Below, in pieces: positions 2,913-43,211 of a stretch of DNA of 64,000 bases; position 1 is the stretch's first letter, and each line of letters starts with the position of its first letter. The notes beneath the pieces were generated by a model. The model saw nothing but the letters and a program-made list of their open reading frames with translations. It had not been told where the DNA came from and did no database searches. The DNA lies in the NCBI GenBank assembly GCA_051313645.2, contig JBNRSN020000003.1:215822001-215886000 (forward strand), in the 5' to 3' direction. Position numbers and translations under genes: made by a program. This stretch comes from Centroscyllium fabricii (lineage: Eukaryota).

Positions 2913-3374
2913 TATTATTATATGAGGTAAAGGTCGATTTTCATTAAGCATCACTTCGGTGGAGCATAGAGAGGAAATTCAAGGTGGGAGTGAAGCATGC
3001 AGGTAACACTGCCCGCCTAATTTTGATTTCATTGGGCGAAAAATTCATCAGCGCACGAATTGGACGCTAAATTTGCCGATGTGCTAAAATTTAGCGCCGC
3101 TGTTATATTAGCACCGACGCGGCCGATATTGGCGCTAGCGGTGGCCTTGATGATTTTGGCACGTATTCACGGCCTTGCACGTCTTCCAGGCAGCCAATAT
3201 GCTTCCGCTAATGGCCGTTGCCGGGCGCAGCGCTCCCTCACTAACTGCTTGCTTCGCCATGGCCTCTGCAGCCAATGAGGCCTTAAAGGGGAAACAGAGC
3301 AGCAGCTGGTCTCTGTGCTCTCTGATCAGTTGCCGCTGGGGGATCACCCGACCCCCCGATCGGGGGGTGTTACA

Positions 3375-3611
3375 TGTGGTAATCTTGTAAATTCCACTGT
3401 AAATAGTTGATGGCACCTTGGTATTGTATTGTAGGCCAGGTTAGCCACACCCCTAACTCCTCCCCTCAAGTCAGAGCATATAGGTGAGGGCTGCCCTGCC
3501 CCCGCTCATTCTTCGCCTTGCACTCATCAGGAGACCAGCTCCATTGTTAGTTCATAAAAGCCTGTAGTTTAGGTAACTACTCGTCTTTGCGTTTTCATTG
3601 ACGATACGTCA
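3375..3611 (+). repeat. 5' LTR of Gypsy 1
   Basis: TGTGGT...CGTCA, direct repeat of 8168-8403. Confidence 0.95.
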
Positions 3612-3635
3612 ATTTTATTAACTAAATTTTAAAAC

Positions 3636-4610
3636 ATGGAGAGTAACGCAGTGAAACCGGATCGCCTCGACATAAATCCTCAGGCACCCGATGCTGTTAA
3701 CGACTTCAAACACTGGTTTGGCCTGGTCGAGGCCTACATGAAGGCCGTAAAGGCTATGAGTGATGAGGTCAAACTCCAGGTACTCTCATCACGGATCAGC
3801 GGCCGGGTGTACTCTTTTATCCGCGGACTCAAGATTTACGAGGAAGCGGCCAAGAAATTAAAGGACTGCTACATGAGCCCGGCCCACTCGGTCTATGCCA
3901 GGCATGTTCTGGCGACCAGCAGACAACGACTCGGTGAGTCAAATGAACAGTTTCTAGTAGCGCTCCAAGCCCTTGCACGGGCCTGTGACTGTCAGGCAAG
4001 GACAGCAGAGGAAGAGGCGAACCTCCTAATCCGAGATGCCTATGTGGCTGGACTCAGGTCCAACCAGGCCCGCCAGCAGCTGCTGGAGCAGGACACACTG
4101 TCGCTTGAGTCCGCGATAACTCTCTCTAATGCGGTGGACGGAGCGCTTCGAAAGCTGGAGGCGTACGGAGATCACGGCTCCCACTGTACCCCTGACCCCT
4201 GGGCGACACAGCGACAGGCCGAGACCCCCACGATGGCAGCGGCGACTGCGAAGACACCGGCGGGGCACAGATGCTACTTCTGCGGCCAAGGAAAGCACCC
4301 GCGGGCGCAGTGCCCCGCGAAGAATCATAGAATCATAGAATCATAGAAGATAGGAGCAGGAGTAGGCCATTCAGCCCTTCGAGCCTGCTCCGCCATTCAA
4401 TGAGATCATGGCTGATCTTTAGCAAGCTAGTACCCTGTCCCCGCCTTTTCTCCGTAACCTTTAATCCCTTTAGCTTGAAGAAATATATCCAATTCCCTCT
4501 TGAATATGTTTAATGAACTGGCCTCCACCGCCCTCTGTGGCAAGTAATTCCACAGGCCCACTGACCAGTGCCCGGTGCGCGAAGAAGGGGCACTACGCGA
4601 AAGTGTGAAA
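3636..4610 (+). pseudogene. gag: Gypsy gag (capsid plus zinc knuckles), interrupted by a CR1 3' end
   Basis: ORF 3636..4346 with LIRDAYVAGL and CYFCGQGKHPRAQCPAK; the second knuckle RCAKKGHYAKV resumes at ~4575. Confidence 0.9.
4322..4557 (-). mobile_element. 5'-truncated CR1 3' end
   Basis: Encodes LWNYLPQRAVEASSLNIFKRELDIFLQAKGIKGYGEKAGTGY, matching the C-terminus at 59054-59293; (ATTCTATG)n tail. Confidence 0.9.
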
Positions 4611-4814
4611 ATCCAACCCAGTCTCCACCTCCAGACTGAACAGCGTGGCCTGCGAGAACAGCAATGCCACTCCATGGCTCCAGGTACGGTGTTGCAGCAC
4701 GACCCAGCAGCGGTCAGCTGGGGGTAAATTGCGGGCGCCTCAATCCCCTTTAACTGTACGGCGGAGGCCGGCCGCGCGAGTGGAACAGGCGCTGCCACCT
4801 CAAACGCGGCCGCG

Positions 4815-5092
4815 ACCGGCCATGTGCGACCCCCCGGCGCCGCCATCTTGTCCACCGCGGTCGGCCGCGTGCGAACCACGGGCGCCGCCATCTTATCCAC
4901 AGCAGTCGGCCATGTGCGACCCTCCGGCGCCGACATCTTGTCCACCGCGGTCAGCCATGTGCGAACCACGGGCGCCGCCATCTTGTCCACAGCGGTCGGC
5001 CGCGTGCGAACCACGGGCGCCGCCATCTTGTACACAGCAGCCGGACAAGTGCGCATCACCAGCGCCGCCATCTTCTGAGCGGCCATCTTGCC
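4815..5092 (+). repeat. 45-bp tandem repeat (~6 units) in the gag-protease linker
   Basis: Unit gccgccatcttgtccaccgcggtcggccgcgtgcgaaccacgggc; translates as a 15-aa Pro/Cys repeat in frame with the protease. Confidence 0.9.
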
Positions 5093-5139
5093 AACTGCCC
5101 CGGCTGGGGCCCCGGATAGCGGAGGGCCCCCACTCACAC

Positions 5140-8086
5140 ACATACACTTTGGCCTCAGCCACCGTCGATCAGGCTAGGCCGCACAACTTGTCCAACTCCA
5201 TGATGTGGATTAAGGTGGACGGGCACGCCACTAGCTGCCTGTTCGACACCGGTAGCACAGAGGGCTTTATACATCCCGACACAGTGCGGCGCTACGCACT
5301 GCAGACCCAGCCCACGCACTACCAAATTTTCCTTGCCTCAAAGTCCCACACGGCGGACGTCACCGGCTACTGAAGCGTCACGCTCACGATCAGGGACCGC
5401 ATTTACCGCAACTTTAAGTTGTACGTACTCCAGCAGCTGTGCGCCCCAGTCTTACTGGGACTGGATTTCCAGTGTCACCTGAAGAGCGTGACGATGGATT
5501 TCGGTGGAACCTTGGCCCCCCTCACCGTCAGTAGCCGGGACAATCCCAACTTAACGCGGAGCTCGACTTGCGGCCTGTCCACATTAAAAGTCAACCCCCC
5601 CTCACTGTTCGCCAATCTCGACCCTAAATGCAAGCCTATTGCTATCAAAAGTCGGCGTTACAGTGCAGGGGACCGGGCGTTCATCAGGTCGGAGGTCGAC
5701 CGCATGCTGAAAGAAGGGATAATTGAGGCCAGCACCAGCCCCTGGCGGGCCCAGGGCATGGTGGTTAAGACGGGCGAGAAACTGCGCATGGTCATCGACT
5801 AAAGGCCTGTTCAGTGCCGTAATTGTCTATTGTCTATTGTCTATTGTCTACACTGTCAGACAAGGACAGCGGAGGAAGAGGCGAACCTCCTAATCCGAGA
5901 TGCTTATGTGGCTGGACTCTACCCCCTCCCCCGCATCTCGGATATGGTAAACCAGATCGCCCAGTACAAGGTCTTTTCCACAATCGACCTCAAGTCGGCG
6001 TATCACCAATTCCCCATCCGGCAATCCGACCGCCAGTACACCGCCTTCGAGGCGAACGGCAGGCTCTACCACTTCCTCAGGGTCCCCTTCGGTGTGAAGA
6101 ATGGGGTGTCGGTGTTCCAGAGGGAGATGGACCGCATGGTTGACAAGAACGGGTTGCGGCCCACCTTCCCCTACTTGGACAACGTGACCATCTGCGGCCA
6201 TGACCAGCAGGACCACGATGCCAACCTCGCCAAATTCCTGTACACGGCGAAACGGCTGAACCTAACGTACAATAAAGACAAGTGTGTCTTTAGTACAGAT
6301 CGGCTCGCTATCCTCGGATACGTGGTGGAAAACGGGGTCCTCGGCCCCGACCCACAGCGTATGCGCCCCTTGCAAGAGCTGCCCTTACCTCCCAACCCCA
6401 AAGCCCTGAGGAGATGTCTAGGGTTCTTTTCTTATTACGCGCAATGGGTCCCCAAGTAAGCGGATAAGGCCATACCTCTCCTCAAGGCCGACGTCTTCCC
6501 CCTCTCGGAAGAAGCCCAAACGGCATTCGCTCGGATCAAGTAAGACATCATCAAGGCGACCATGCACGCCGTTGATGAGTCCATTCCCTTCCAGGTGTAG
6601 AATGACTCTTCGGACTTCACCCTTGCCGCCACCCTGAACCAGGCAGGCAGGCCCGTAGCATTTTTCTCCCAGACCCTACAGGGACCCGAAACTCGCCACT
6701 CAGCGGTGGAAATGGAGGCCCAGGCCATCGTGGAGGCAGTGCGCTACTGGCGTCATTACCTGGCCGGTAAGCGTTTTACCCTGCTCACTGACCAACGGTC
6801 GGTGGCGTTTATGTTTAATAATAAAAAAAAGGGTAAGATCAAGAATGATAAGATCCTTCAGTGGCGGATCGAACTCTCGACTTACGAGTACGACATTCTT
6901 TACCGCCCAGACAAGCTCAACGAACCCCCGGATGCACTGTCCAGGGGAACGTGTGCCAGAACCCAGCTTGACCGGCTGAAGGCCCTCCACGATCGCCTCT
7001 GACCACTCGGGTGTCACCAGACTCGCCCACTTCGTCAAATCCAGTAGCCTCCCCTACTCCATCATGGAGATAAAGGCTATGACCAAAGAGTGACCTGTCT
7101 GTGCCGAGTGCAAACCCCAATTCTACAGGCCAGACACGGCGCACGTCATCAAGGCCACCCGCCCCTTTGAATGCCTGAGCGTGGACTTCAAAGGCCCACT
7201 CCCCTCCACTGACCGCAACTCGTATTTCCTTACGGTCATAGACGAGTTCTCACGCTTCCCCTTTGCCTTCCCCTGCCCAGACATGACGAGCACAACGGTG
7301 ATCAAACACTTCACCACGCTGTTCGCCATTTTCGGTCTCCCCAGCTACATCCATAGCGACCAGGGGTCGTCGTTCATGAGCGACGAACTGCGTCAGTTCC
7401 TGCTTCAGAATGGGGTTGCATCAAGCAGAACGACCAGTTACAACCCCCGGGGGAACGGCCAGGTCGAAAGGGAGAACGGGACCATATGGAAGGCGGTCAA
7501 CCTGGGCCTGAAGTCCAGAGGCCTTCCAGTTTCCCGTTGGCAGGAGGTCCTCCCAGAAGCGCTCCATGCCATCCGCTCTCTGCTGTGTACCGCCACTAAC
7601 CCCACACCTCATGACCTGTTGTTTTCCTTCCCCAGGAAGTCGACTTCAGGGACAGCACTCCCGCTGTGGCTCACAGCGCAGGGGCCAGTGTTGCTTAGGA
7701 AGCACGTCCGCGGCCACAAGACCGATTCCCTGGTGGAATGGGTGCGCCTGCTCCATGCCAACCCACAATATGCTTACGTGGCATTCCAGGACGGGCGCGA
7801 GGATACAGTCTCGATCAGGGACCTGGCGCCCACCGGGAGCACTTGGGCAGAACCCCCGGTCGAGCCTCAGCCCGACCAGCCACCACCCACCGAATACTGG
7901 CCCCCATATATATACACACCGGGGCCCTCAACACCACCGATCGACGACCCGGGATCGGACACCGCACCACTGGCACCATTGGCGGAGATCTCGATCCCGG
8001 CCCTGCAACCGGCACCAGCATTGCCGGCACCCCGGCAGTCCCCCAGGCAGATGCGACCGCCGGAGAGACTAATAACGCAATGCTAA
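5140..8086 (+). pseudogene. pol: Gypsy pol (protease, RT, RNase H, integrase) with several stops and frameshifts
   Basis: CLFDTGS protease; YPLPRI, DLKSAYHQ, PFG, YLDN in RT; EMEAQAIV, LTDQ in RNase H; DFKGP, HSDQGSSF, NGQVER in integrase. Confidence 0.95.
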
Positions 8087-8167
8087 TTGCTAATGGACAT
8101 ATAGAGATTTTTTTTTCACCAGAAGGCACGTTCACCCCGCCGGACTTGTTTTTAAAGAAGGGGTGAA

Positions 8168-8403
8168 TATGGTAATCATGTAAATACCACTGTAAATAGG
8201 TGATGGCACCTTGGTATTGTATTGTAGGCCAGGTCAGCCACACCCCTAACTCCTCCCCTCAGGTCGGAGCATATAGCTGAGGGCTGCCTTGCCCCTGCTC
8301 ACTCTCGCCTTGAACTCATCAGGAGACCAGCTCCATTGTTAGTTAATAAAAGCCTGTAGTTTAGGTAACTACTCGTCTTTGCATTTTAATTGAGGATACG
8401 TCA
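8168..8403 (+). repeat. 3' LTR of Gypsy 1
   Basis: Direct repeat of 3375-3611, AATAAA at 8345. Confidence 0.95.
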
Positions 8404-9304
8404 TTACACTGGAAAGCTCAGGGGGCTCTGACTTCCTGAAGATAAATTCTGGAAGAATGAAAACGGAGCACAGCGTGATTCCTGACAGAAGACCGCAGAT
8501 TCGGGGGCCGGCTCTCTGATCAGTTCCCAATTGGTGGGTCGCGGTGACCCCCTCTAGGTGGGTCATGGTGACCCACCTAGAGGGGGTCGCCGCGACCCAC
8601 CGATCAGGAACTGGTCATAGAGCCGGCCCCCGAATCTGCGGTCTTCTGTCAGGAATCACGCTGTGTTCCGTTTTAATTCTTCCAGAATTTATCTTCAGGA
8701 AGTCAGAGCCCCCTCAGCTTTCCAGTGTAACACCCCCCGATTGGGGGGTCGGGTGATCCCCCAGCAGCAATTGATCAGAGAGCCGGTCCCCCTCCCCGCT
8801 CTCTCATCAATTGGCCTCTCAGGCTGACTCCCCCCATCAGCTGGCCACGCTCGGACCGAAGAGGGAGGGTGGCCCTTTTAGCAGCGCTGCAGCGGCCACT
8901 CAAACTCACTGCAGCGCTTGCAAAAGCTGGCGCTGATAGCGCAGGGGACGGTGGAAAGGCGCTAAGCACAATATCGGGCGTAACCCACCGGCGGGCATTG
9001 CACACGCATTGATATGACGATTGTTGATCGGCAGGCAGCACAGCGCTGACGTTTACCCCTAGTCCAATTTAGCGCCCGGTGCTAATTTGGGCGCTACGTC
9101 TGCGCTGCCCCATTAGCGCCGTTTTTTGGCGCTAATGGGCCGGCGCTAAGGCGCCAATTTTTCGCCCATTTAAATTAATTGCAGAAAAATCAGGGGTGCT
9201 CTCTAATGGGCATGAGATCCTTCCTGGCCAATATATGAAATAATTTATGAATTATTTCTGAAACTGGTGCCAAAATCAAGCGATGTGTGATTTAAAAAAA
9301 AAAA

Positions 9305-11490: not shown

Positions 11491-14425
11491 GCTGAGGAGC
11501 AGGAGCACAAGGAGGAGGAAGAGGAGAAGGAGGAAGGGGAGGAGGAGGAAGGCAGGCTGCAACCTATAAAGCCCCTTTCTGCCTGGGCTGTCTGTGAACA
11601 ACTAATTCAAGTGCGATACCAGTAACCTCAACCCCAATTCCCCATTCACCAACAGCCTCACACTATGTACCTTCCATCTGTCACTGACCATCACATTGTC
11701 CTCTTGACCACAATGCAAAAATAAAAGCCAACACAAAATAAACATTCCAAACCACATTTATCAATTAAATTATGCCCTATTGCAGACAAAATTAAACTAA
11801 ACACCCTTGTGCATTCCCTTAGTGCCTGCCTTCCATGTGCCTTTGCCTGTCCTAGTGCTCCTACACAGTGCTACCCCAGTGGCTGCAGCATGGCTGGTGG
11901 AAGGCTGCTAACTTTCAGTGGTGGAGACTGCAGATGGCCGTGGAGGACGACCTAAAGCAGCTCTGGGCCCAGAAGGCCCAGCTTTAGATTGCACCATCTT
12001 GGCATAGACAACAGAAGTCTGGGCTGGCTGGCTGACAGGCAACAGCAAGGGCACCAGCAAAGTGGCAGGAGTGGGAGAATGAATACTGTCATTCTGAGAG
12101 AGAGCAGCAGGTTTGTGCTCCATCTAGCCACTGCCACACCCCTGGAGCAGTGTCTCAGAAATCCTAGTAATCTGTTGGAGGACAGATTGCTGGACTGCTG
12201 TGACACCCTGCAAGCCCCTTTGAACACTGGTATCCAGAGCCATGTTGGCAGCTATCTGAGCTTCCACTGCAGCACTCAGACTTTGGGTGGCTGCTGCATG
12301 TGCTGCAATGGAAGATGAGATATTGGCCATCAGACGCTGCATCATGGTTGTCTCTACAAGTTTGTTGATGGAGTCGGCCATTACTTCTGTTAAATTCGTG
12401 ACTACTAATTCAGTTTAGGCAAGACTCGACTCAGGAGCTGTGGATCAACAGTCTTTATTCCAGGTCAGCAGAAGGGTAACTGGCGTCAAGTGCTCCACCC
12501 AGTATCTTATATACAGTGGTAGTTAGAAGTGGTACTGCAGTTGATTACACACGCAGTATTCCTCCCATCTTATTTTACTTGTACACGTATGATATTTACA
12601 CCAAGGGAGATCTAATACGGTTAGCTAACTATTTACATACAGTCTGATTTAACTATGTTAACTCTAATGTTCAGTCTCTGGGGGGTGTCCGGTCTCGCAC
12701 CGGATATCGTTTTTCGATGACCAGCGCCGGTGGGATCCTGGGCGCCTCTTCAGATGGTGCTGGCGGAATCCTGGGCGTCTCTTCAATTGCCTCTTCGTCC
12801 GAGGTGACATCCTCCAGTAGGTCGCCCATTGGTCGCCCAGGTGAGTCCGCTGGGTTGTTGGGTGGCAACGTACGTTCCACGGACACTGTGTCTCTACTAG
12901 CACCCACGATTTGGTCAACATGGCGCCTGATGTGTCCTTTGTCAGTGTCCACGGTGTACGTCAATGGCCCCTGTCTGGCCTTGATGGTTCCTGGTTGCCA
13001 TTTGTCGCTTCGGTAGTCCCGGGCCATGACTGGTTTTCCGACCACGAAACTCCTGGTTTCACTCTCCGCGACCCTGTGGAACACTCAGTTTTCCACATCC
13101 ATCCGGATGTTCGGCTTCAGTAGGTCCAGCCGAGTTCATAGCCTCCTGTTATAAAACAAAACTGCAGGTGCATGGTTAGTTACCGCATGTGCGGCGTTGA
13201 GGTAGGCAAACAGGAAATTATCTATCTTATGCTGTAGGGGCAGCTTCCCTTCCCCCATGGCTTTGATTGCCTTTTTAAACGTCTGCACAAATCTCTCGGC
13301 CAACCCGTTCATAGCCGGATGGTATGGTGCTGACGTATAGTGTCGGATCCCGTTCCTTTTTAGAAACGACTTAAATTCTTCTGACACGAACTGGGGACCA
13401 TTATTGGAGCAAATTTGCTCAGGAATCCCGTTCCTGGCAAACATGGTCCAGAGTACCGTTACCGTCTTTTCCGCGGTAGTGAATGACATCTGTATCACCT
13501 CCGGCCATTTTGAGTGGGCGTCCACGACTATTAGGAACCTGGTGCCCATGAACGGCCCCTCTGTATTTCTGCCACGGGGATGATGGCCATTCCCATGGGT
13601 GTAACGGTGCCTGAAGAGATGCATTCTGTACTTTCTGACATCCTTGGCATTCTTTTGCCAATAGCTCTATGTCCTTGTCTATTCCTGGCCACCATACATA
13701 CGCCCTGGCTAGGCTCTTCATTTTGACCCCCCCAAGTGTCCCTCGTGCAGGTCCGCCAGGACTTTCTTTTGTAGTTTCTTGGGTATAACCACTCTGGCCC
13801 TGCACATTAGGGTGCCCCGGCATACCGACAGTTGGTCTTTCCTTGCCGCATACGCCGGCCATAGGGTTTGGTCCGCCCTGGGCCACCCTTTTATCGTGGT
13901 TTCGTATATCTTTGCCAAAGTGGGGTCATTCCTGGTTTCGCGTTCAATTTGTTGGCTCGTTACCGGTAAGTTTTCGAGTACTGCCACATGATAAATTTCC
14001 AGGGGTCCTGTTGTGCATCCTCAGGAGTTTCGGGCATTGGCAGTCGCGATAGGCTGTCAGCATTGCCGTGCTGTCTTGTTCCCTTATATACTATCGTGTA
14101 CTGGTGTGCCCCCAGGAACAATGCCCATCTCTGTAGTCTCTGGGCTGTCATCTGAGGCACCCCTTTACTGGGATGAATAATTGAGATTAAGGGTTGGTGA
14201 TCCGTCAGCATGTGAATTTTTGGCCATGTAGGTACTGATGGAACTTTTTTACTCCCCACACGAGGCTGAGTGCCTCCCTATCGATCTGCGCATAGTTTTT
14301 TTTCTGCCGCCGTCAGTGATTTTGATGCAAATGCAATCGGCCTCTCTGTTCCGTCCCTACATTTGTGGGACAGTGCTGCCCCAATGCCGTATGGTGATGC
14401 ATCACATGCCAGTCTTATTGGCAGT

Positions 14426-14691
14426 TGATACCTTATCAATAACCTCAGAAACGAGAAGTTACGTGGTGAATAAAGGCTTTTATTCGCTAAAGCTTGGGCA
14501 TGCCCCAGCTAGTCGACTGCTCCCGGAATGATCGGGGGGAGGGAGATAGTCACCTTTATACCTGTCCTGGGAGGAGGAGTCACAGGCAGAGTCAGCCCGG
14601 GCATGCCCAGACAAGCAGTACACAGAGAACTATATACACAATGTTACAGGCCATGGATATGATACAAGTATATACATAGTGGTTTACCACA
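14426..14691 (-). mobile_element. Solo LTR related to the Gypsy 1 LTR type, inserted in Gypsy 2 RNase H
   Basis: TGTGGTAA...ATCA on the minus strand, TSD GCAGT. Confidence 0.85.
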
Positions 14692-16536
14692 GCAGTCTCG
14701 GGCCAAAGTGTGCTAGCACCTCTTTGGATGTTATGAGCTGCTTGCTTTTCTTAAACGCTGTCATGCAGGCCTCATCTCAGTTCCATGGTGCTCCTGCCTG
14801 TAGCAGTTCATTCAGGGGGTGTGACACGGTCGACAAATTGGAGAGGAACTTGTGGTAGTAATTTATGAGGCCAAGGAATGACCACAGTTGTGACACGTTT
14901 TCTGGGGGCGGGGCTTTTACTACCACTGTGATCTTTTCTGGGGATTTGGGTAGGCCCGCTCTGTCTATCTCATGGCCACAATATGAGATGCGGTCCTTAA
15001 AGAATTCACATTTTTGTCAGTTTTCCCACAGGCCATGTTCTTTTAGCCTATCTAGTACCTTTTCCAGGTTGGCCAAGTGTTCCCCATCTGTTTCCCCTGT
15101 CACTAATATCTCATCCAGGTAGCATTGTGTCCCTGGGATGTCTTGTAATACCTGGTCCATGGTCCTCTGCCATATAGCTGGAGCTGATGCTATCCCGAAT
15201 ACCATTCGGTTATATTGGTACAACCCTTTGTGTGTGTTTATCATCAACAGCTTCCTGGACTCCGGTTCCACCTCCATCTGCAAATAAGCTTGGGACAGGT
15301 CAATTTTACTGAAATGCTTCCCCCCTGCCAATGAGGCGAATATATCTTCGATCCTTGGCAGTGGGTACTGTACTATTTTCAAGACCGGATTGATTGTCGT
15401 TTTGAAATCCCTGCAAATGTAGACTTTTTTTGATTCCCCTTCCTTAATTGGTGCCTTCTTGATTACTGGCACTATGGGCGTTGCCCACTCGCTCCACTCT
15501 ACTTTCGATAAGACCCCTTCATCTTCTAGGGCCTTTAATTCTGCCTCCACCACTGGCTGTATTGCGCATGGCACCACCCGTGCTTTAGCAAATTGTGGCG
15601 TGGCACCCTGTGTGATTGTGGTTTTTGCCTGAATGTTCTTCAGTTTCCCCAACCCTTGTTGAAATACCTTTGGTGTCTTTGCCAGAATCTCGGCTAGTTT
15701 CCCCGCAACCGTTGGGTCCTTGTCGTTCTTATCTTTCTTCTTTACTTGGAGTTCGTTGATGGACCTCCATCTAGGTGGATCTTCCTGATCCATTCCCGCC
15801 CTAGAAGTGGTGGTCCCCCATTCTGTAGGACATAGAGGTACAAGCCTATTACTTTCATTTCATTATATTGTACCATGACGGGTAACCTCCCCATCGTCTG
15901 GAAATTCTGTCCCGTATATGTTTTGAGGATTACTGACGTGTCCTCCAGGCACACGCCTCTAAATAGCCTTTTATAGTCCTTTTCATTTATTACCGATCGG
16001 GCTGACCCCGTATCCAGTTCCATATTTATCTTTACCCCTGCAACCTTCAGGTTTATCCACATGATGCTGCAGTCTGTGGAGTTGCATATGTTGTAAACCC
16101 TGCGGCTACCCAGCCCCAATTCTTCTCTCCTGGCAGTTTCTGACTCGCTACCTGAGCTGTCCTCGGACAGCCGGTGGACTCTTCTGCCCTTCTTGGGTCT
16201 AGTCCGGTTATCTGGCATTAGGGGCTTCCTCCTTGACCTGCAGACTTTGGCTATGTGACCTAGCTTCCCACACTGATGACAGGTTTTATCCTTGAACCAG
16301 CATTGCGCCTGGTTATGTATGGTTTTCCCACAACGATGGCACTTGTTGGTGCTTGCCATCACCTTGTGTGTGTCACAGTATGTTGTCCCCTGCCTGATGT
16401 CCGCGGCCCCCAATGCAGCCACTTCATGTGCTGCAGCTATCTTTACCGCCTGCTCCAATGTGAGCGTTGTTTTTGTCAGTAATTTTTTTTTGTGTGGCTT
16501 CATTTAATAATCCACAGACAAATCGGTCCCTCGAAT

Positions 16537-17019
16537 TGTTAACTCACTCACTCTGCGAGGAGGACCCACCCTCCTGGGGGTCTGGGTTCTTACTTTAGGA
16601 GACTAAACACATCGGTCAGTCTGTCACTTTCTCAGTAATACACAAAGTCAGAAACTGTAAAATAATTAAAGTTTATTACCCAGTACTGGTACTTCACTCT
16701 GAGAGACACCTTGTGTTAGCACAAGTAATAGCAACCCAGCAGTGCACCCCTTGCTCGCTCTGAGACTGCTATTATTTATACAATACAAAGACCTTGCAAG
16801 AAGATTAAACGTACATGTTCTGCGAATAATTCTGAAAAACGACAACAACCAATGAAAAAATAGAGACAGCAAAAACCAAATTAAATGTCAACATCTTGTG
16901 CTGACTCTTATCTTTGCAGCTGCAATATTGTTATGTCTCTATAGTTTACCTCTTTGCTTCCAACCTTTTAACCCTTGTCAAACTATAATAAAGCAATCTA
17001 GAATTAGCCAAAGTTTAGA
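16537..17019 (-). mobile_element. ~480-bp LTR-like insertion in Gypsy 2 gag
   Basis: Interrupts gag between GLAD and RDRFVCGL; TGT terminus, minus-strand TATA (tgtatataaat) and AATAAA; far end and TSD imperfect. Confidence 0.55.
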
Positions 17020-18917
17020 AATGTAATCTGCTAGTCCATTTGCAAATTGGCAGTTCTTTGAGAGTCGTCTCAACTCCATTAGATATTCTGCCTGGGACTC
17101 TCCCTTATGTTGGTCGCGCTTGAAAAATCTGAACCATTCTGCCATGAACAGTGGTTTGGGGTTTAAGTGATTCTTTAAGGCTGTTTTCATCTCCTCCAGC
17201 GATTTGTCTGCCGGTTAATCTGGCATTGATAGGGTTCTTAATAACCCGTACGTCGCTGCCCCGATTGCATTTAGCAATGCCTTATCATTGTCTGTTACCT
17301 TCTTTACTTTGCAGTAAATTTCAAAATGCTCTATATATGCTTCCCAATCTTCCTTGTCCACGTTGAATGCCCCTAAGGCCTCTGACTTCTCTATTGTTTA
17401 GTTTGGATTTCTGTCCCCCCAAAATGGCATCTTTTCGTGCCCTTTTATGTCTTTATCGTGTCTTCCCAACTCAAAATGGTGTATTTTTGCACCTCAAAAT
17501 GGCGTCTTTACGCGCCCTTTTGTGTCTTCTCGCGTCTTCCCAACTCAGGATGGCGTCTTTTCGTGCTCTTTTTCGCGTCATCCCGACTCAAAATGACGTT
17601 TCTTTGCCTCTTCCTGACTCAAGATGGCGTCTTTTCGCGCCCTTTTTCGTGTCTTCCTCGCATCTGCCCGACTCAAAATGGTGTTTCCACGCGCCCTTTT
17701 CCACGACCACCCGCTTATACTAATTGCCTTACCTTCTCCCACCACTTCGTGTGAGGTCTGGCGTGGTACCTGGTGGTCGGCTTCCCTCGGGCTCCTTTGG
17801 TGAGCGCTGCCTCGGCCGCTGGTCCTCCCGGTCCGATGCTGGAGTGCAGGCCACTGCCAACGCTTCTCCCGATGCTGGAGTGCAGGCTGCTGCCAACACT
17901 TCACCTCGCTGCTGAACTGCAGGCTGCTGCAAACGGAAGTCCCCGATGCTGGCTGCTTGCCGTCCTGGTTACTGCCAATGCTGCTCCCAATGCTGGAGTG
18001 CTGGCCGTCCTGTCTGCTGCCTACCAACTCCGTGGTACTGGACTGTGGGGTGGGTCCTTAGCTCGATGTCGCTGATGCCAATTTCTGTCTTCTGTCGCCG
18101 TAGGTTCGACCGACCTCATCGCCAGTGTTAAATCCGTGACTACTAATTCAGTTTAGGCAAGACTCGCCTCAGGAGCTGTGGATCAACAGTCTTTATTCCA
18201 GGTCAGCAGAAGGGTAACTGGCGTCAAGTGCTCCACCCAGTACCTGATATACAGTGGTGGTTAGAAGTGGTACTGCAGTTGATTACATACACAACAACTT
18301 CCATGCTGGGGTCTAAGCTCTGTGCAGAGCCCTGTGCCAAGTTGGTGCCGGACTCCGCCATGCTCCTTGACATTGAATGCAGGCTTTCTGGCAGGCTTCC
18401 CAATGCACCAAGCATTTTGGTGTGTAGACCCATCAGCCTGGCCCATCAAAGTCCTCTGCAGCAGAACTCATGTGCAACCTCGGCCTCAAACAAGCTGGCA
18501 CCTGCACTACCCTTGCCCCCTGCCCTGGCTGCAGTGCATTTGTGCCGGTGTCTCACCATGTGCAGATCCTGTCTCTAATCTGTCCTCTATGATATGCACA
18601 GTGTCTGTATCTGAGCTGGTGGCTGCGAGTGTGAAATCATCATCAGTGCCTTCTTGGTCTTCCTCCACTGGGCAAGTTGCAGTTCTTGGGTATCTGAAAG
18701 GAAAAAGGGACATGGGTAAAGTTGTGGTGAGGGGAGAGGGGAAAGTTAGAGGTGCATGTTTGCACCATCTGTAGCTCATAAGTCAGAAGAGACTGTGGGA
18801 TGAGGGGGAAGTGGGATGTGAGAACGAGGATTCGGTATGAGGATACCGTCATCTTCAATGGATTCAGCCCTGCCGCTAGCCACGGGCTCAGCAATGGCCC
18901 TTTCCATAATGGCCAGC

Positions 18918-20604: not shown

Positions 20605-23600
20605 AACCTCTGTTGAAGAAGGGTAATAGAAATGACCCTGGTAACTGTTACGTTTCCGCGTCACCACTGTTAGGTTACCTTTCTGTTCCTTCGAGGTGTG
20701 TGTGCGTGAGGCTATAAGACACAGGCACAGAGAGCTTTATAACACAGGTCTTTAATGATCAATCTCCCAGGTGGAAGCCCATCGATACATTCGGTACAGC
20801 GCCTTTTATACTCAGTTGCCTAAAGCTGCACTACAGTAACCTTCCACTATACAATACAAGTTCCAGTACAGCTGCTATGCCATTGGCTCACAGGCTGATA
20901 CAGCGGCATTGCCATTGGCTCACAGACTGTCCATCATAGCCTACTCACATACACCACACTCCTCCCCCCTTACATGAGCACATCACCCCTCTTTGTTTTC
21001 ATTAACATCTTAACAACAGTACAATGTTATTATTCATAACTAGGCAATTCTACTGTGCTCATGTACTAAAATGAACATACTACAATTTTACTTGTTACAA
21101 CATGGTTGTCTAGTGACTCCTTACTTTAACATGTAACACAACATTAATAAGAGTCAATGACTTTACTGTAACATTCATCCCAAGCCCTGATATTCGGCAT
21201 AAGGATCTTCCTCCGTCGTTGGAAAAGTGTCCATGTACAGTCCTTGAACGGGTTTGCCCGTTACTGGGTTAATCTTGGTGTTAGGATGATGGTATTCGTG
21301 TTCCCTTGGTTGCTGTTTAATTTCTGCAGCACTTCTTACTGCTGACTCATGTTAAAAGCTGTCCCCAAGGTTAAATCGTTCTTCGTTAAGAGAAGTTTCT
21401 GTGTGCCAGCAATTCACAAATAAATCTGTTTCTTAATAGTTCTGTTCGCTTCAAATTTAAAAAAGTAAACACTTTCCGGTCTTCTGCTATTTCAACCCTT
21501 TCTACATAAGTGTCCCAGTTCTCGATATCATTATCGAACGCTGTTACTGTAGGGACCTTTGCCATCTTCAGGTATCTTTTCTTTCAGTTTTCAAAAACTT
21601 TTCTTTCTTTTCAAAACTTTTCTTTCTTTTTCAAAACTTTTAAAAACTTTTCAAAACTTTTCTTCCTTTTTCAAAACTTTTCTTTCGTTTTCAAAACTTT
21701 TCTTTTTCAAAACGTTTTAAAAATTTTCTTCTAAAATGGCTTCTGCCTCGCTTTGAAAATTTTACAAAATGGCTGCTGCCTCGTTTTGATTTTCAAAATG
21801 GCGTTCGCCTTTCTCCTTTCCTAAGATGGCGCTCACCTTCCACGATGCTTGCAGCGCCCTTTACAACGCTACTTCAGGGTAAGGGAAAAAAAAAATGACT
21901 TCCTCAGCCCCTCTTTCCCTTCCCTCCCCATTCTTTCGGGTTCCTCCTGCAGGTAAAAAAAACAAAAAACGGCTTCCTCAGCCCCTCTTTCCCTTCCTCC
22001 CCGTTTTTGCAGGTTCCTGCCGTGATCCCCGTGGTCTCCTCGGTGGCCTGGCATTACTATGTCCCCAGCAGTGGCCTTCCCCACCCCCAGACACAGCGTT
22101 CCCCCTACTAAACCACCGGGGGCTTCCCGACTCACCCCGTGTCAATTACAGCGGCGTCAGTCTCTTCAACGCCTGGACATCGATCTCCTCTGCCGTTTGC
22201 TGGAGAGTCAACACTGACCCTCCACAGCTGCTTTGCTTGACGTTCCTGCCCTCAGGCTGCCTGTTTGCTGGCCAGCCTGTTTTTCAGGTTTGTCTGTGCT
22301 CTGTGTTTGGAGCTGCTTCTTGCCCCAGCCTCTGGTTCTGCCTCCAGGCCGTTTTTAAACAGTGATTTTCTGGCTGCTCCTTCTTTGGATTGCCCCAGTC
22401 TTCAGACTTTTTCTGAGAGTCACTGCAGGTCCAGATTTACCCTCTATCTCATCGCCACTGTTACGTTTCCACGTCGCCACTGTTAGGTTACCTTTCTGTT
22501 CCTTCGAGGTGTGTGTGCATGAGGCTATAAGACACAGGCACAGAGAGCTTTATAACACAGGTCTTTAATGATCGATCTCCCAGGTCGAAGCCCATCGATA
22601 CATTCGGTACAGCGCCTTTTATACTCAGTTGCCTAAAGCTGCACTACAGTAACCTTCCACTATACAATACAAGTTCCAGTACAGCTGCTATGCCATTGGC
22701 TCACAGGCTGATACAGCGGCATTGCCATTGGCTCACAGACTGTCCATCATAGCCTACTCACATACAGCACAGTAACTATAGACCGGTTAGTCTTACTTCG
22801 GTGGTCGGTAAGTTAATGGAAAAGGTCCTGAGGGATAGGATTTATGACCATTTGGAAAGGGGCAACGTAATCCGGAATAGTCAACACGGATTCGTGAAGG
22901 GTAAATCGTGCCTAATAAATTTGATGGAATTCTTTGAGGAGGTAACTAAGTGTGTAGATGAAGATAAGGCAGTTGATGTCATGTACATGGATTTTAGTAA
23001 GGCGTTTGATAAGGTTCCCCATGGACGGCTCATGATGAGAGTAAGGAGTTGTGGGATAGAGGGAAATTTAGCCGAGTGGATAAGTAACTGGCTAGAAGGC
23101 AGAGGGTGGTGGTGGATGGAAAATACTCGGGCTGGAGACCAGTCACCAGCGGTGTGCCACAGGGGTCGGTGCTGGGTCCTCTGCTATTTGTGATCTTTAT
23201 CAATGACTTGGAGGAGGGGGCTGAAGGGTGGGTCAGTAAATTTGCGGATGACACCAAGATAGGTGGAGTAGTGGATGAGGTGGAGGAAAGTAATAGGCTG
23301 CAGAGAGACATTGACAGGATGCAGAGCTGGGCCGAAAAGTGGCAGATGGAGTTTAACCCTGACAAGTGCGAGGCGATTCTTTTTGGTAGGACAAATATGA
23401 ATATGGAGTACAGGGTCAGTGGCAAGGTTCTGAAGAATGTGGAGGAACAAAGGGATCTTGGGGTTCATATCCATAAATCACTGAAGGCTGCCACTCAAGT
23501 GGATAAAGCTGTAAAGAAGGCCTATGGTGTGCTGGCATTTGTTAACAGGGGATTTGAGTTTAAGAACCGTGGGGTTATGCTGCAACTGTACAGGTCCCTG

Positions 23601-38896: not shown

Positions 38897-41800
38897 TGTA
38901 GAAATCGACGGATTTCTATCAAAAAATGAGGTCCACATGCGAGCACAATCAAAACAGGTCTTTACTCAATGCAAACGTAGCAGGGACTGCCTGGGCAACC
39001 CTGTGGCCGACATGATGATGTCATCATGTGTACAAACGATTCCCACGCTTTTAAAGGGGCCACGCCCCATATGTACAAACATTATATATACAGTACAGTG
39101 ATGCCTAACACCATGGTCGAAGAGCAGGCTGGTGTTAGGACTTTGTTAAAGTGAATTGTGCACAATTAAATAGTTGTACCATCACATGCGCTCCCCCAGA
39201 ATTCGCCTTAACAAATAAAGTCAAACGGTGAGGGGGTCTGACAAGCCTGTCAGAACGGCTACTGTATTCTCGAGGTGGAGGTTGCTGAGCGGCTGGCGGT
39301 CTGTTGGTCTGTAGTAATGACGACAGGCAGCCTACCTCGCTTCGGCGGCTGTGCTGTCTGGACGGGCTTGAGTCGGTCGACCGAGGCGTGGTCCGGTTTA
39401 CCACTGACGTCGACGATAAACATTTTGTCTTCTGTTTCCAAAACACGGAAGGGACCTGTGTATGGGGCCTTGAGCAGATCCCTGTGTGCGTCGTGATGGA
39501 TAAACACATATTCAGCCTTGTGGAGCTCCTTAGGCACGTGGGACCTCTGCAGCCCGTGATGGGAAGTGGGCAACAGAGGAAAACCTTTGGCAGCCTCCTG
39601 GTGCTTGGCTAGCTGGGCAGATGTGGACCACGGCTCCATTGCAGTTGGAATGAAATCGCCCAGAACCCTCAGCGGCTGACCGTACACCAGCTCCGCCGAT
39701 GAAGAGTGAAGGTCTTCTTTGGGGGCTGTGCGAAGACCCAACAGGACCCACAGTAGCTTGTCAACCCATCCTGTGTCTTGGAGGCTGGCCTTCAGCATGG
39801 CCTTCATTAACCGGTGGAAACGTTCGCAGAGGCCTTTTGCCTGCGGGCGGTAGGCTGTGGTGCGGTGCATTTTGACACCGAACCCCTGAGCCACCGCGTT
39901 CCAGAGTTCCGAGGAGCACTGCGGTCCCCTGTCAGATGAGATATCAGCGGGAACTCCGAAATGGGTAACCCACGAGGAGATGAACGCCCTGGCCACGATC
40001 GCCGAAGTGGTAGATGAGAGTGGGAAAGCATCCGGCCATCTGGTGGTGCGGTCGACCATGGTGAGGATGTGTGAAAATCTATAGGAGAGTGGAAGCGGAC
40101 CTACCAAGTCCACGTTGACGTGGTCGAAACGTCGCTCCGTAACCATGAAGGTGGCCAATGGTGCTTTGATGTGCCGCTGAATCTCGGCCCTTTGGCAGAC
40201 CACGCAGGTGTTGGCCCAGTTGCGGATGTCCTTGTGCATGCTGTGCCAGACGAACTTCACTGACATCAGCTTCTGGGAGGCCTTCATTCCAGGGTGTCGA
40301 AGACTTTGCGGCGCCAAGCGGCCGGAACAGGTTGGGGATCTTGTACTGAGACGTCGCACAGCAGTGTGGTGCCTGCTGAGTGGAACTAGATGTCAGCTAG
40401 CTGGAGGCCGGTGACAGCCGTACTATACGCCTGTACTTCTGGGTCTGCGTTTTGATCCGCTGCCATGAGGGCATAATCGATGCCCAAATGGACAGTGTTG
40501 ATGGCCGCGTGGGAGAGGCAGTCTGCCACCAGGTTATCCTTACCGGCCACGTGTTGTATATCCATGGTAAATTCGGATATGTAGGTCAGCTGCCACTGTT
40601 GTCGGGTTGACCATGGCTCGGCAGTCTTGGCCATAGCGAAGGTTAGTGACTTATGGTCGCCGAAAGTCGTGAAGGGCCGCCACTCAAAGAGGAAATGGAA
40701 ATGGCGGATAGCCAGGAAAAGGGCGAGCAACTCCCTGTCGAACGTGCTGTAAGCCCTCTCGTTCTGCCGCAGTTTACGGCTGAAGAATGCCAACGGCTGC
40801 CAGGTGCCTTTCACCCACTGCTGTTGAACCGCACCGACTGTGTAATCCAATGTGTCAGTGGTAAGGGCTATGGTGGCTCCTGGTAGAGGGTGTGCCAACA
40901 TAGTCACGTTGGCCAAGGTGCTTTTAGTGTCAGCGAACGCTCGGGCCATCTCATCTGTCCAGTCAACCAGGTTCTTGCATGTCCTGCCCTTGAGGGCCTA
41001 GTACAGGGGCTGCATGAGTAATGCCGCCTTGGGCACGAAACAGTGGTAAAAATTTACCATGCCCAGGAACTCCTGCAGGGCCTTCACTTTCTGCGGGTGT
41101 GGAAAGGCTATCACCGCCTCTACTTTCGCAGGTAAAGGCACCGCTCCCTCCGATGTGATACGATGCCCCAGGAAATCAATTTGGTGCAGGCCAAACTGAC
41201 ACTTGGCCGGTTTGATGATGAGGCCGTGTTGACTGAGGCATTGGAAAAGGGTGCGTAAGTGACCGATATGTTCTGCCTCAGTCGGACTGACAATCAGCAT
41301 GTTGTCTAGATAGACGAAGAGGAACTTGAGGTCCTGCACCACGGAGCCCATCAGGCGTTGGAAAGCTCGGGCGGCATTCTTTAAACCGAATGGCAATCTC
41401 AAAAATTCGAAGAGGCCAAACGGGGTGATGACTTTGGTCTTCTGGACATCCTGTGGGTGAACTGGGGCCTGGTGGTAGCCCCGGACGAGGTTGACCTTGG
41501 AGAAGACGGTATTACCTGCCAAGTGGGCAAAGAAATCTTGAATGTGGGGGGATCGGGTACCGATCCGGTGTGGTGGCATCATTAAGACGTCGATAGTCGC
41601 CGCAGGGCCGCCATCCACCGCCAGGCTTTGGGACGATGTGGAGAGGTGAAGACCAGGGACTATTCGACGGCGAATAATTCCCAACCGGGGGCCGTTGGTG
41701 GTAATGTGATGCTCCACCCCATGTCTGGTGGATGTGGAGGAGAAAGTGGGCCTCATTAGGCCGGGGAATTCCATGAGCAGCCGAGCAAACTCATCAGGCA

Positions 41801-43211
41801 TCGGGAATGCACAGGAGACGATGCGTGCCATCGTGTTACTGCGGTAACACGGGAGGGAATGAAAGATTGCTGTGTTGATCAGCCGCTGATTCCAGACGTC
41901 GACCAAGAGGCTGTTGGTACACAGAAAATCCGCACCGAGGAGGGGCTGGGAAACCTTAGCCATGTCAAAATCCCAATGGAAGCATTGGCCCCCGAAGCAC
42001 ACTTCCATTCACCGCCTGCCGAAGGTCTGGATTGCTCCGCCATTGGCCGCTTCAAGGGTGGGTCTGTGATTCCCCGTCTGGACATCGAGGGTGGACGCGG
42101 GCAAAATGCTGCACTGGTGTCACACAGAAACCGATGACCAGAGAGGGTATCAGTTATGAAAAGTAGTTTTCCTGCGCTGCTGACCGCCATTGCGGCCGCG
42201 GAGTGCTTGTTAAACCCGGACTGCTGTGGCCACAGCGTCAGTTGGTCAGGTTTTTTTTGAGAAAATGTGCAGGGAGGGCGGTAGCGCCTCGCCTCCACGC
42301 CGAACTGCGCATGATAAAAGCACAGCCCAGCAGTCTGACAAGCTGGGGTGGTGTCCGTGGGGGCTGGGAGCCTTGTGGCGGTGCAGTAGTGTCGAGTGAC
42401 CGCAAAGATTTTATCGGCCTCAGCAGCGAGGGCTGCGCAGTCGGTGATTTCGGAGCTAGCCAGGGCGGCTTGTACTTGCTCAGGTAGCTGACTGAGGAAT
42501 AGCTCCTGGAATCGGAAGCATTCCGGTTCGGAACCCAGGAGTGTGACCATTTGGCTCATCAACTCCGAGGGCTTAGAGTCCCCGAGCCCGGGCATCGAGA
42601 GTAGTCGGCGGGCGTGCTCCGATTTAGTGAGCCCGAAGACCTGCAGCAATCACGCTTTGAGTGTGTCATACTTGCGCTCCGCAGGGGGGTTTTCCAGCAG
42701 GCTGATGATCCGGGAGGCTGTGAAGCTGTCAAGTGCGGAGACCACATATACGAATTTGGTCTGATCCGCCACGATGTCTCGCAGGGCGAACTGGGCCTCG
42801 ACCTGGATGAACCACGTGGGCGCCTGCTGCTCCCAGAACTGTGGCAGCTTCAATGGAATGGCATTGGCTGCCTTCCTGCGTAATAGTCTGTGAAATCGTT
42901 CACAAGACTCGGGGTCACCACTGTAGAAATTGACGGATTTCTATCAAAAAATGAGGTCCACACGGGAGCACGATCAAAACAGGTCTTTACTCAATGCAAA
43001 TGTAGCAGGGACTGCCTGGGCAGCCCGTGGCTGCCGTGATGACATCATCACATTTACCCGTGATTTCCCGTGCTCTTAAAGGGGCCATGTCCCATATGTA
43101 CAAACATTATATACACAGTACAATGATGCCTAACACCATGGTCGAAGAGCAGGCTGGTGTTAGGACTTCGTTAAAGTGAATTATGTACAATTAAACAGTG
43201 GTCCCGCCACA
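38897..43211 (-). mobile_element. CsRn1-clade Gypsy B (inner), near full length, frameshifted
   Basis: 290-bp LTRs 38897-39186 and 42922-43211, TSD GCCT, PBS TGGTGACCCCGA (tRNA-Trp), gag KLPQFW..WF.QVEAQF and CFYH motif, RT, RNase H and integrase ORFs. Confidence 0.95.

Follow-up and report, generated by a model that had tools for sequence, protein, structure and literature searches.

How does an LTR retrotransposon begin minus-strand DNA synthesis if the slot behind its 5′ LTR carries no TGG and is instead complementary to the element's own LTR? This question is raised by a Ty3/Gypsy element at positions 3375-8403 (+) of the window, the 64-kb stretch of DNA that was analyzed here. Tf1 of fission yeast has been demonstrated to self-prime, its chromovirus relatives and a plant copia lineage are inferred to do so, and the original prediction had proposed self-priming for this element as well. 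The element displays the TG...CA LTRs, target duplication, polypurine tract (PPT) and gag-PR-RT-RH-IN order of Ty3/Gypsy elements (Table 1), and a Pfam search detected PR, RT, RNase H and IN in Gypsy order. The window copy is dead: gag is split by a 237-nt repeat, RT contains an insertion, and the aligned parts of pol hold seven stops and one frameshift. The RT insertion (near 5805-5909) is a microsatellite with a short duplicated piece of gag (5852-5919). A 45-nt tandem repeat, also carried by sister copies, lies between gag and protease (4765-5119). The dispersed repeat that hosts the element (3330-3374 and 8404-8450) has an inverted copy just downstream, at 8536-8790.

Table 1. Features of the retrotransposon copy, in window coordinates
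Feature	Position	Strand	Remarks
Target-site duplication, left	3370..3374	+	TTACA; the host site is another dispersed repeat
5′ LTR	3375..3611	+	237 bp, TGTGG...CGTCA; 92.9% identity to 3′ LTR
TATA-like box (putative function)	3477..3483	+	CATATAG; sister subfamilies have TATAAAG in that place
Inr-like motif	3505..3511	+	30 nt after TATA-like box; predicted start A3508, 41 nt before conserved AG
Predicted self-primer	3547..3559	+	AG at 3549-3550, poly(A) hexamer region, AAA end; one mismatch to slot (3553)
RCC motif and short RCCT...AGGY stem, directly after predicted cut	3560..3574	+	
Primer-binding slot	3613..3625	+	Single A (3612) between LTR end and slot; no TGG
gag to first zinc knuckle	3636..4325	+	Knuckle at 4272-4322; 92-94% identity to best genomic copies
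Later insertion between both zinc knuckles	4326..4562	.	Dispersed repeat family D7, 237 nt
Second knuckle, PR, RT, RNase H, IN	4563..8086	+	Stops, frameshift, insertion near 5805-5909; no chromodomain
Polypurine tract	8154..8167	+	
3′ LTR	8168..8403	+	236 bp; exact complement of slot at 8339-8351
Target-site duplication, right	8404..8408	+	TTACA

The reverse complement of positions 3613-3625 is found exactly at 8339-8351 in the 3′ LTR and, with a single mismatch at 3553 (12/13), at 3547-3559 in the 5′ LTR. When up to one mismatch was allowed, the 13-mer occurred three times in the 64-kb window, always within the element; the mean in shuffled sequences was 0.06, and none of 100 shuffles reached three occurrences. 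These matches and the lack of a TGG agreed at all coordinates with the original prediction, as did its placement of the gag ATG, which starts 24 nt past the 5′ LTR. Ordinary primer-binding sites had been claimed for other elements of the window, and with regard to the TGG this was borne out by the three further LTR pairs whose junction is intact, in which a TGG follows 1 to 2 nt after the LTR (20644-22771, 12388-18293, and 38897-43211 [minus strand]). No tRNA genes were found within the window, and an Rfam search of it gave one chance-level match only (E value of 1, in RT). Since 11 of the 13 pairs are A-T, an AT-rich chance match had to be considered as an explanation of the complementarity.

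We therefore turned to copies and relatives of the element, as a chance complementarity had been expected to be lost in diverged relatives. In the 7.2-Gb source genome (G000), the 5′ end of the element gave 4,737 candidate places, of which 40 were scored and the closest 30 analyzed. The slot matched the copy's own 5′ LTR at 13/13 positions in 23 of these 30 copies and at 12/13 in the other 7, including the window copy; the 5′ LTR mismatch is a trait of the window copy. A wider set of 180 loci from the same genome was reduced to 109 by dropping 44 loci (no junction with at least 9 pairs) and 27 duplicates. Among the remaining loci, 63 paired at 13/13, 38 at 12/13 and 8 at 11/13. Searches with diverged gag queries revealed four further families in this genome, and two additional gag searches mostly repeated known families.

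Outside the source genome, a search with the window integrase returned 989 longer proteins. Among the named matches were Seison, Trichuris, a tunicate, a crinoid and a shrimp as well as rays and catsharks, which would suggest a cartilaginous fish as the source. Single open reading frames (ORFs) on contigs of about 4 kb accounted for many of the homologs. An alignment of 65 homologs led to 64 metagenome loci and 7 genome-bin loci. The same layout and pairing were present in 32 of the 34 outside loci that had DNA upstream of gag. Pairing was read by eye in L061, L066, L071, L077, L084 and L090, where the LTR end had been mis-set automatically or a mismatch was present, and also in L088. L064 and L127 are without an LTR-gag junction, and when 21 loci that are partial or degenerate were scanned, no clean junction and 3 unrelated matches were obtained. 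No relative was found in the viral contigs that were searched. Loci L125 to L131 are animal-type retrotransposons on contigs of bacterial genome bins and probably represent host DNA. In L084, gag is preceded by two tandem copies of the LTR end and slot (94-294 and 3956-4100), which reflect either an assembly artifact or a duplication.

Covariation was assessed in 22 hand-picked family and subfamily representatives, 8 from the source genome (five of them close kin) and 14 from outside. The LTR end of 14 of the 22 was set by a CA+ATTT motif and not by an LTR pair, so that the first three pairs were preset and the rest were free. Twenty-one representatives pair 11 to 18 nt (median, 14) with their own LTR, starting at the first base of the slot, and the single exception is a copy with one changed base. 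Pairings across families reached 11 nt in only 6 of 462 combinations, and 60 dinucleotide shuffles per LTR gave a maximum of 10 nt. The slot starts with TTT, not TGG, in all 22 representatives and differs by family. In an alignment of 15 rows, 192 of 195 cells of the inner 13 pairs were paired; 10 of the 13 pairs change on both sides, and the other three are invariant A-U. For the helix of 18 pairs, neither the observed pairing nor the observed covariation was reached by any of 500 shuffles, although the representatives are related to each other and such shuffle counts are not probabilities. When the register was slid, the paired fraction fell from 85% to 30 to 46%.

Changes on both sides were also evident at the subfamily level. 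Sister subfamilies of the source genome vary at two primer bases, -9 and -8 relative to the primer 3′ end, where 48 copies displayed five dinucleotide types (TT, TC, TG, CG and CT), and the slot matched in 44 of these 48 copies. In contigs of a related organism, both partners of a single pair were changed (T3548A and A3624T), although the two changes were not shown together on one molecule. Pairing is thus retained in diverged relatives, with compensatory changes. The slot-LTR pairing is not due to chance: cross-family covariation, subfamily co-changes and the 13-mer shuffles refute this explanation, which we regard as vanishingly improbable. Given that the slot covaries with the LTR in a family-specific manner, one tRNA is an unlikely partner as well.

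The proteins point to a compact, chromodomain-less Gypsy clade of animals that is encoded by one ORF and has a mostly YxDN RT. Full-length polyproteins had a median of 1,218 amino acids (aa) (n = 57), and two zinc knuckles were present in 61 of 72 long clade proteins; the LTRs measure 163 to 302 bp. The RT motif of the window copy reads YLDN (6172-6183) and not YxDD, and among the 104 readable homologs, YxDN was found in 79 and YxDD in 25. A chromodomain was detected neither in the window ORF nor in 7 full polyproteins nor in the precomputed domains of 120 homologs, and no Tf2-type SH3 domain was seen in the clade proteins examined.

The junction has a constant geometry. Between the CA of the LTR and the slot stands a single A, the primer segment ends with AAA in 22/22 representatives, and RCC follows the primer in 20/22. 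An AG occupies positions -11 and -10 in 20/22, and a pyrimidine follows it in 20/22. From the primer end to the LTR end, the loop measures 23 to 65 nt. An RCCT...AGGY stem reached a summed length of 91 over the 22 representatives, compared to 63.5 in shuffles (0/500 as high), with few families being significant singly. In predicted folds, the helix had a mean pair probability of 0.79 to 0.99 in 21 of 22 representatives; the exception was L128 (0.01). The 86-nt core of the window element folded at a z score of -2.47, while longer leaders were no more stable than shuffles (z scores of -0.99 and -0.56).

An overlap of the primer with AAUAAA had also been predicted. This was correct for 16 of the 22 representatives, in which AATAAA or ATTAAA terminates the primer, but the overlap is not universal: among the other six, one is a point-changed copy and five have GTTAAA or TTTAAA, and two of these five carry a canonical hexamer further downstream, outside the duplex. 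From this geometry, it is reasonable to suppose that the helix may hide the 5′ poly(A) signal, which would fit the 16 of 22 layouts. The hexamer of the 3′ LTR is also predicted to pair, with U5, and the masking may therefore not be specific to the 5′ side. A canonical hexamer within the helix, together with a gag ATG that follows 16 to 45 nt after the LTR in most families, could also be taken to mean that the fold is regulatory only, either hiding the 5′ poly(A) signal or setting translation of the nearby ATG, while a tRNA or other RNA primes elsewhere; the bipartite primer-binding site reported for Ty1 and Ty3 (PMC5371799) offers a precedent. We consider this improbable. The helix ends one base from the LTR CA in nearly every family, which is the start site of minus-strand synthesis, and no TGG is present. 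A fixed register and an invariant AAA|RCC edge would be needless for a regulatory hairpin, and five intact representatives lack a canonical hexamer in the helix.

Together, these observations provide good support for the proposal of self-priming without a chromodomain, with complementarity that is kept and covaries in diverged relatives. At a probability of roughly 85%, judged from sequence, the clade with the LTR-covarying slot primes minus-strand DNA by its own RNA and without a tRNA, and the window element is a decayed copy of it. In the full-length RNA, the LTR segment would fold back onto the slot. Cleavage at AAA|RCC, for which the RNase H of the element is the probable enzyme by analogy to Tf1, would free a 3′ OH one base from U5, from which RT could copy U5 and the remaining R up to the cut. 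A poly(A) site typically lies 10 to 30 nt from its hexamer. As the end of the hexamer usually coincides with the cut, the 3′ RNA copy would be expected to run 10 to 30 nt beyond the cut, which would provide the overlap for strand transfer. The Tf1 primer stays attached to the cDNA, and here, too, an attached primer would serve as the template from which plus-strand synthesis restores the slot; LTR changes would in this way be passed to the slot, giving stepwise co-change. The same helix would, less firmly, hide the 5′ poly(A) signal.

The two LTR copies have an identical sequence and are indistinguishable from DNA, so the primer might instead be the 3′ copy of R, on the same or a copackaged RNA, cut or trimmed to AAA, with the RNA priming from its own 3′ end. 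The primer does always end with AAA, and an upstream start would give a long R for transfer. After transfer, however, a primer in an RNA-DNA hybrid would presumably be degraded and the slot would not be rebuilt; the cis helix at the 5′ end, moreover, is predicted to form readily. Priming from the 3′ copy thus appears to have only a small chance of being correct. A search of the source genome for poly(A)-tailed retrocopies found none that matched the search pattern, a result that says nothing on the 3′ end, and no RNA run was listed as containing the stretch.

Within self-priming by the element's own 5′ leader, the primer could be the 5′ end of the RNA or an internal piece of it. A TATA-like box and an Inr with a spacing of 30 to 31 nt are shared by the window family and three sister subfamilies, and they place the predicted start 41 to 43 nt before the AG. 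This promoter spacing leads us to lean slightly toward an RNA that begins some 40 nt ahead of the duplex in the window family, with an internal piece serving as the primer. In a plain Tf1-type arrangement, which is a subcase of self-priming, transcription would start at the conserved AG (as an Inr) and the first 11 to 13 nt would be the primer, while the upstream TATA-like box and Inr would drive another transcript or none. Several features agree with such a start. TTAG(T/C) resembles an Inr and is placed exactly 11 nt from the cut, which is the length of the Tf1 primer; a capped 5′ end would form a natural stop for plus-strand synthesis, while no comparable stop is evident for a primer that carries a 40-nt leader; the support from TATA and Inr comes mostly from related shark subfamilies, and 13 of the 22 representatives, among them most outside families, had no TATA-like box anywhere in the stretch scanned; and alternative starts are known in Tf2 (PMC5341516).

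Other features argue against a start at the AG. The duplex continues beyond the AG in 19 of 21 representatives, with a pyrimidine as its 5′-most base in 16 of 21. Pairing includes position -12 in 20 of 22 and position -13 in 21 of 22, with changes on both sides; positions -14 to -17 are paired in 9 to 14 of 22, compared to about 5 further out. In the chromovirus controls described below, pairing stops at 11. A TATA-like box at 26 to 34 nt before the duplex was found in none of the 22 representatives. The Tf1-type start is therefore possible but, in our judgment, unlikely, and an internal primer is slightly preferred for the window family.

Two candidate explanations of the primer region were rejected. 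L107 begins exactly at the primer 5′ end; it was not accepted as a transcript start since its LTR end falls at base 55 and assemblers commonly use words of that length. The conserved AG was not accepted as a splice acceptor, as the next base is a pyrimidine in 22 of 24 LTRs, a strong tract was seen in only 1 of 24, and the slot pairs across the AG. Separately, 7 of 24 LTRs (L105, L130, L088, L077, L140, L144 and L160) contained strong sites resembling 3′ splice acceptors at 28 to 52 nt upstream of the primer end, compared to a shuffle mean of 2.2 (3 of 1,000 shuffles as high). Three of these are the Inr of related subfamilies, which leaves four independent sites. Such sites might reflect splicing into the LTR, in cis or in trans, or else a terminal exon.

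As a same-genome control, we used elements of the source genome with a Tf2-type SH3 domain, i.e., sushi-type chromoviruses (L264:2875-7866, L265, L269, L273 and L274), which represent two families only. A chromodomain was present in 3 of 3 controls tested, and their RT motif is YLDD. An exact self-duplex of 11 nt that starts on a purine, with a loop of 153 to 218 nt, was found in four of six readable controls. Three of these four have TATTTAA at -30, a motif that was read by eye and afterwards widened for the scan of the clade. Flanking "pretzel" helices reached a P value of ≤0.05 in 0 and 1 of the 22 representatives and in 2 and 0 of 4 controls; among the controls, only one of the flanking helices was thus recovered. 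RT identity is 47 to 74% within the clade and 26 to 35% (about 29%) between the clade and the sushi-type controls. In the RT tree, the clade formed one separate branch with a support of 100/100 that was not nested in the chromovirus branch; this tree excluded near-duplicates and four rows labeled SH3-type (from L264, L266, L268 and L275) that are in fact neighboring copies of the self-priming clade. A sister relation of the clade to sushi-type elements was not rejected (AU test, P = 0.149; 4 outgroup rows), and a separate origin of self-priming is therefore not demonstrated. We tentatively suggest, as a possibility somewhat short of even odds, that an animal-wide clade with a mostly YxDN RT evolved its own self-priming, in which the primer is cut inside the leader at the hexamer and a single helix would prime, hide the 5′ poly(A) signal and set the overlap for transfer.

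These results add a large chromodomain-less animal clade of likely self-priming elements, with thousands of candidate places in the source genome alone. Primer-binding-site finders that are based on tRNAs would classify such elements as defective. If these elements do use an internal primer that is linked to the poly(A) signal, the solution would be unlike that of Tf1 and would offer a testable link between 3′-end processing and priming. The clade also bears on whether self-priming is ancestral or has arisen repeatedly, and its natural compensatory pairs and YxDN/YxDD variants constitute ready comparisons. Tested directly in this work were the subfamily-level compensatory changes, the chromovirus control from the same genome and the promoter spacing that favors an internal primer. 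The literature searched, whose coverage stops short of key older papers, contained no account of self-priming in such a clade. The available text of mollusc and annelid surveys (PMC6238403 and PMC8556966) and of pufferfish Gypsy surveys likewise held no description of primer-binding sites that we could find.

Several known lineages resemble the clade in part. The Mag lineage has, like the clade, two zinc knuckles in gag (PMC2577118). In the RT tree, the elements of the source genome that we label Mag-type by their RT motifs form their own branch, with 25 to 33% RT identity to the clade, and their member in the window has a TGG slot. In Cigr-1 elements, the LTRs measure about 245 bp, a single ORF spans about 1,210 codons and gag is echinoderm-like. 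These sizes resemble those of the clade, and a tunicate is among the clade relatives; by size, the clade would probably belong to Cigr-1. The Cigr-1 clade of Ty3/Gypsy is known from Ciona intestinalis, molluscs and annelids (PMC6238403 and PMC8556966).

With respect to priming, the plant TAR (Ty1/copia) and Tcn1 lineages have been predicted to self-prime on the basis of at least 10 complementary bases located 0 to 5 nt after the LTR (PMC6317226). The slots of the clade conform to this definition, with at least 10 nt complementary to the LTR and a start within 0 to 5 nt of it. TAR resembles the clade in that the trait was proposed outside chromoviruses. Unlike the clade, TAR and Tcn1 belong to another superfamily or to chromoviruses, occur in plants and fungi, and are described in the available part of that source without a link to the poly(A) signal. 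Dictyostelium Skipper is presented as being without LTR complementarity in the accessible text of PMC5006619, and bivalve TRIMs are presented as having no clear primer-binding site in that of PMC6934838.

The closest parallel is provided by Tf1/Tf2, Tj1 and the Tf1/sushi group. The first 11 bases of Tf1 RNA in Schizosaccharomyces pombe are described as pairing with the primer-binding site, with RNase H cutting between bases 11 and 12 (PMC7175516); the 5′-end primer is also covered in bioRxiv 10.1101/2022.12.06.519325 and PMC4600332. Like the clade, these elements have no tRNA site, their slot after the LTR CA pairs with an LTR segment, and a conserved base is placed 11 nt ahead of the predicted cut. 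The clade differs from them in being without a chromodomain or Tf2-type SH3 domain and in having a duplex of 11 to 18 nt instead of 11 nt. Compared to the sushi-type controls, it also has a far shorter loop, a poly(A) hexamer that usually lies in the primer and no TATA-like box at -30.
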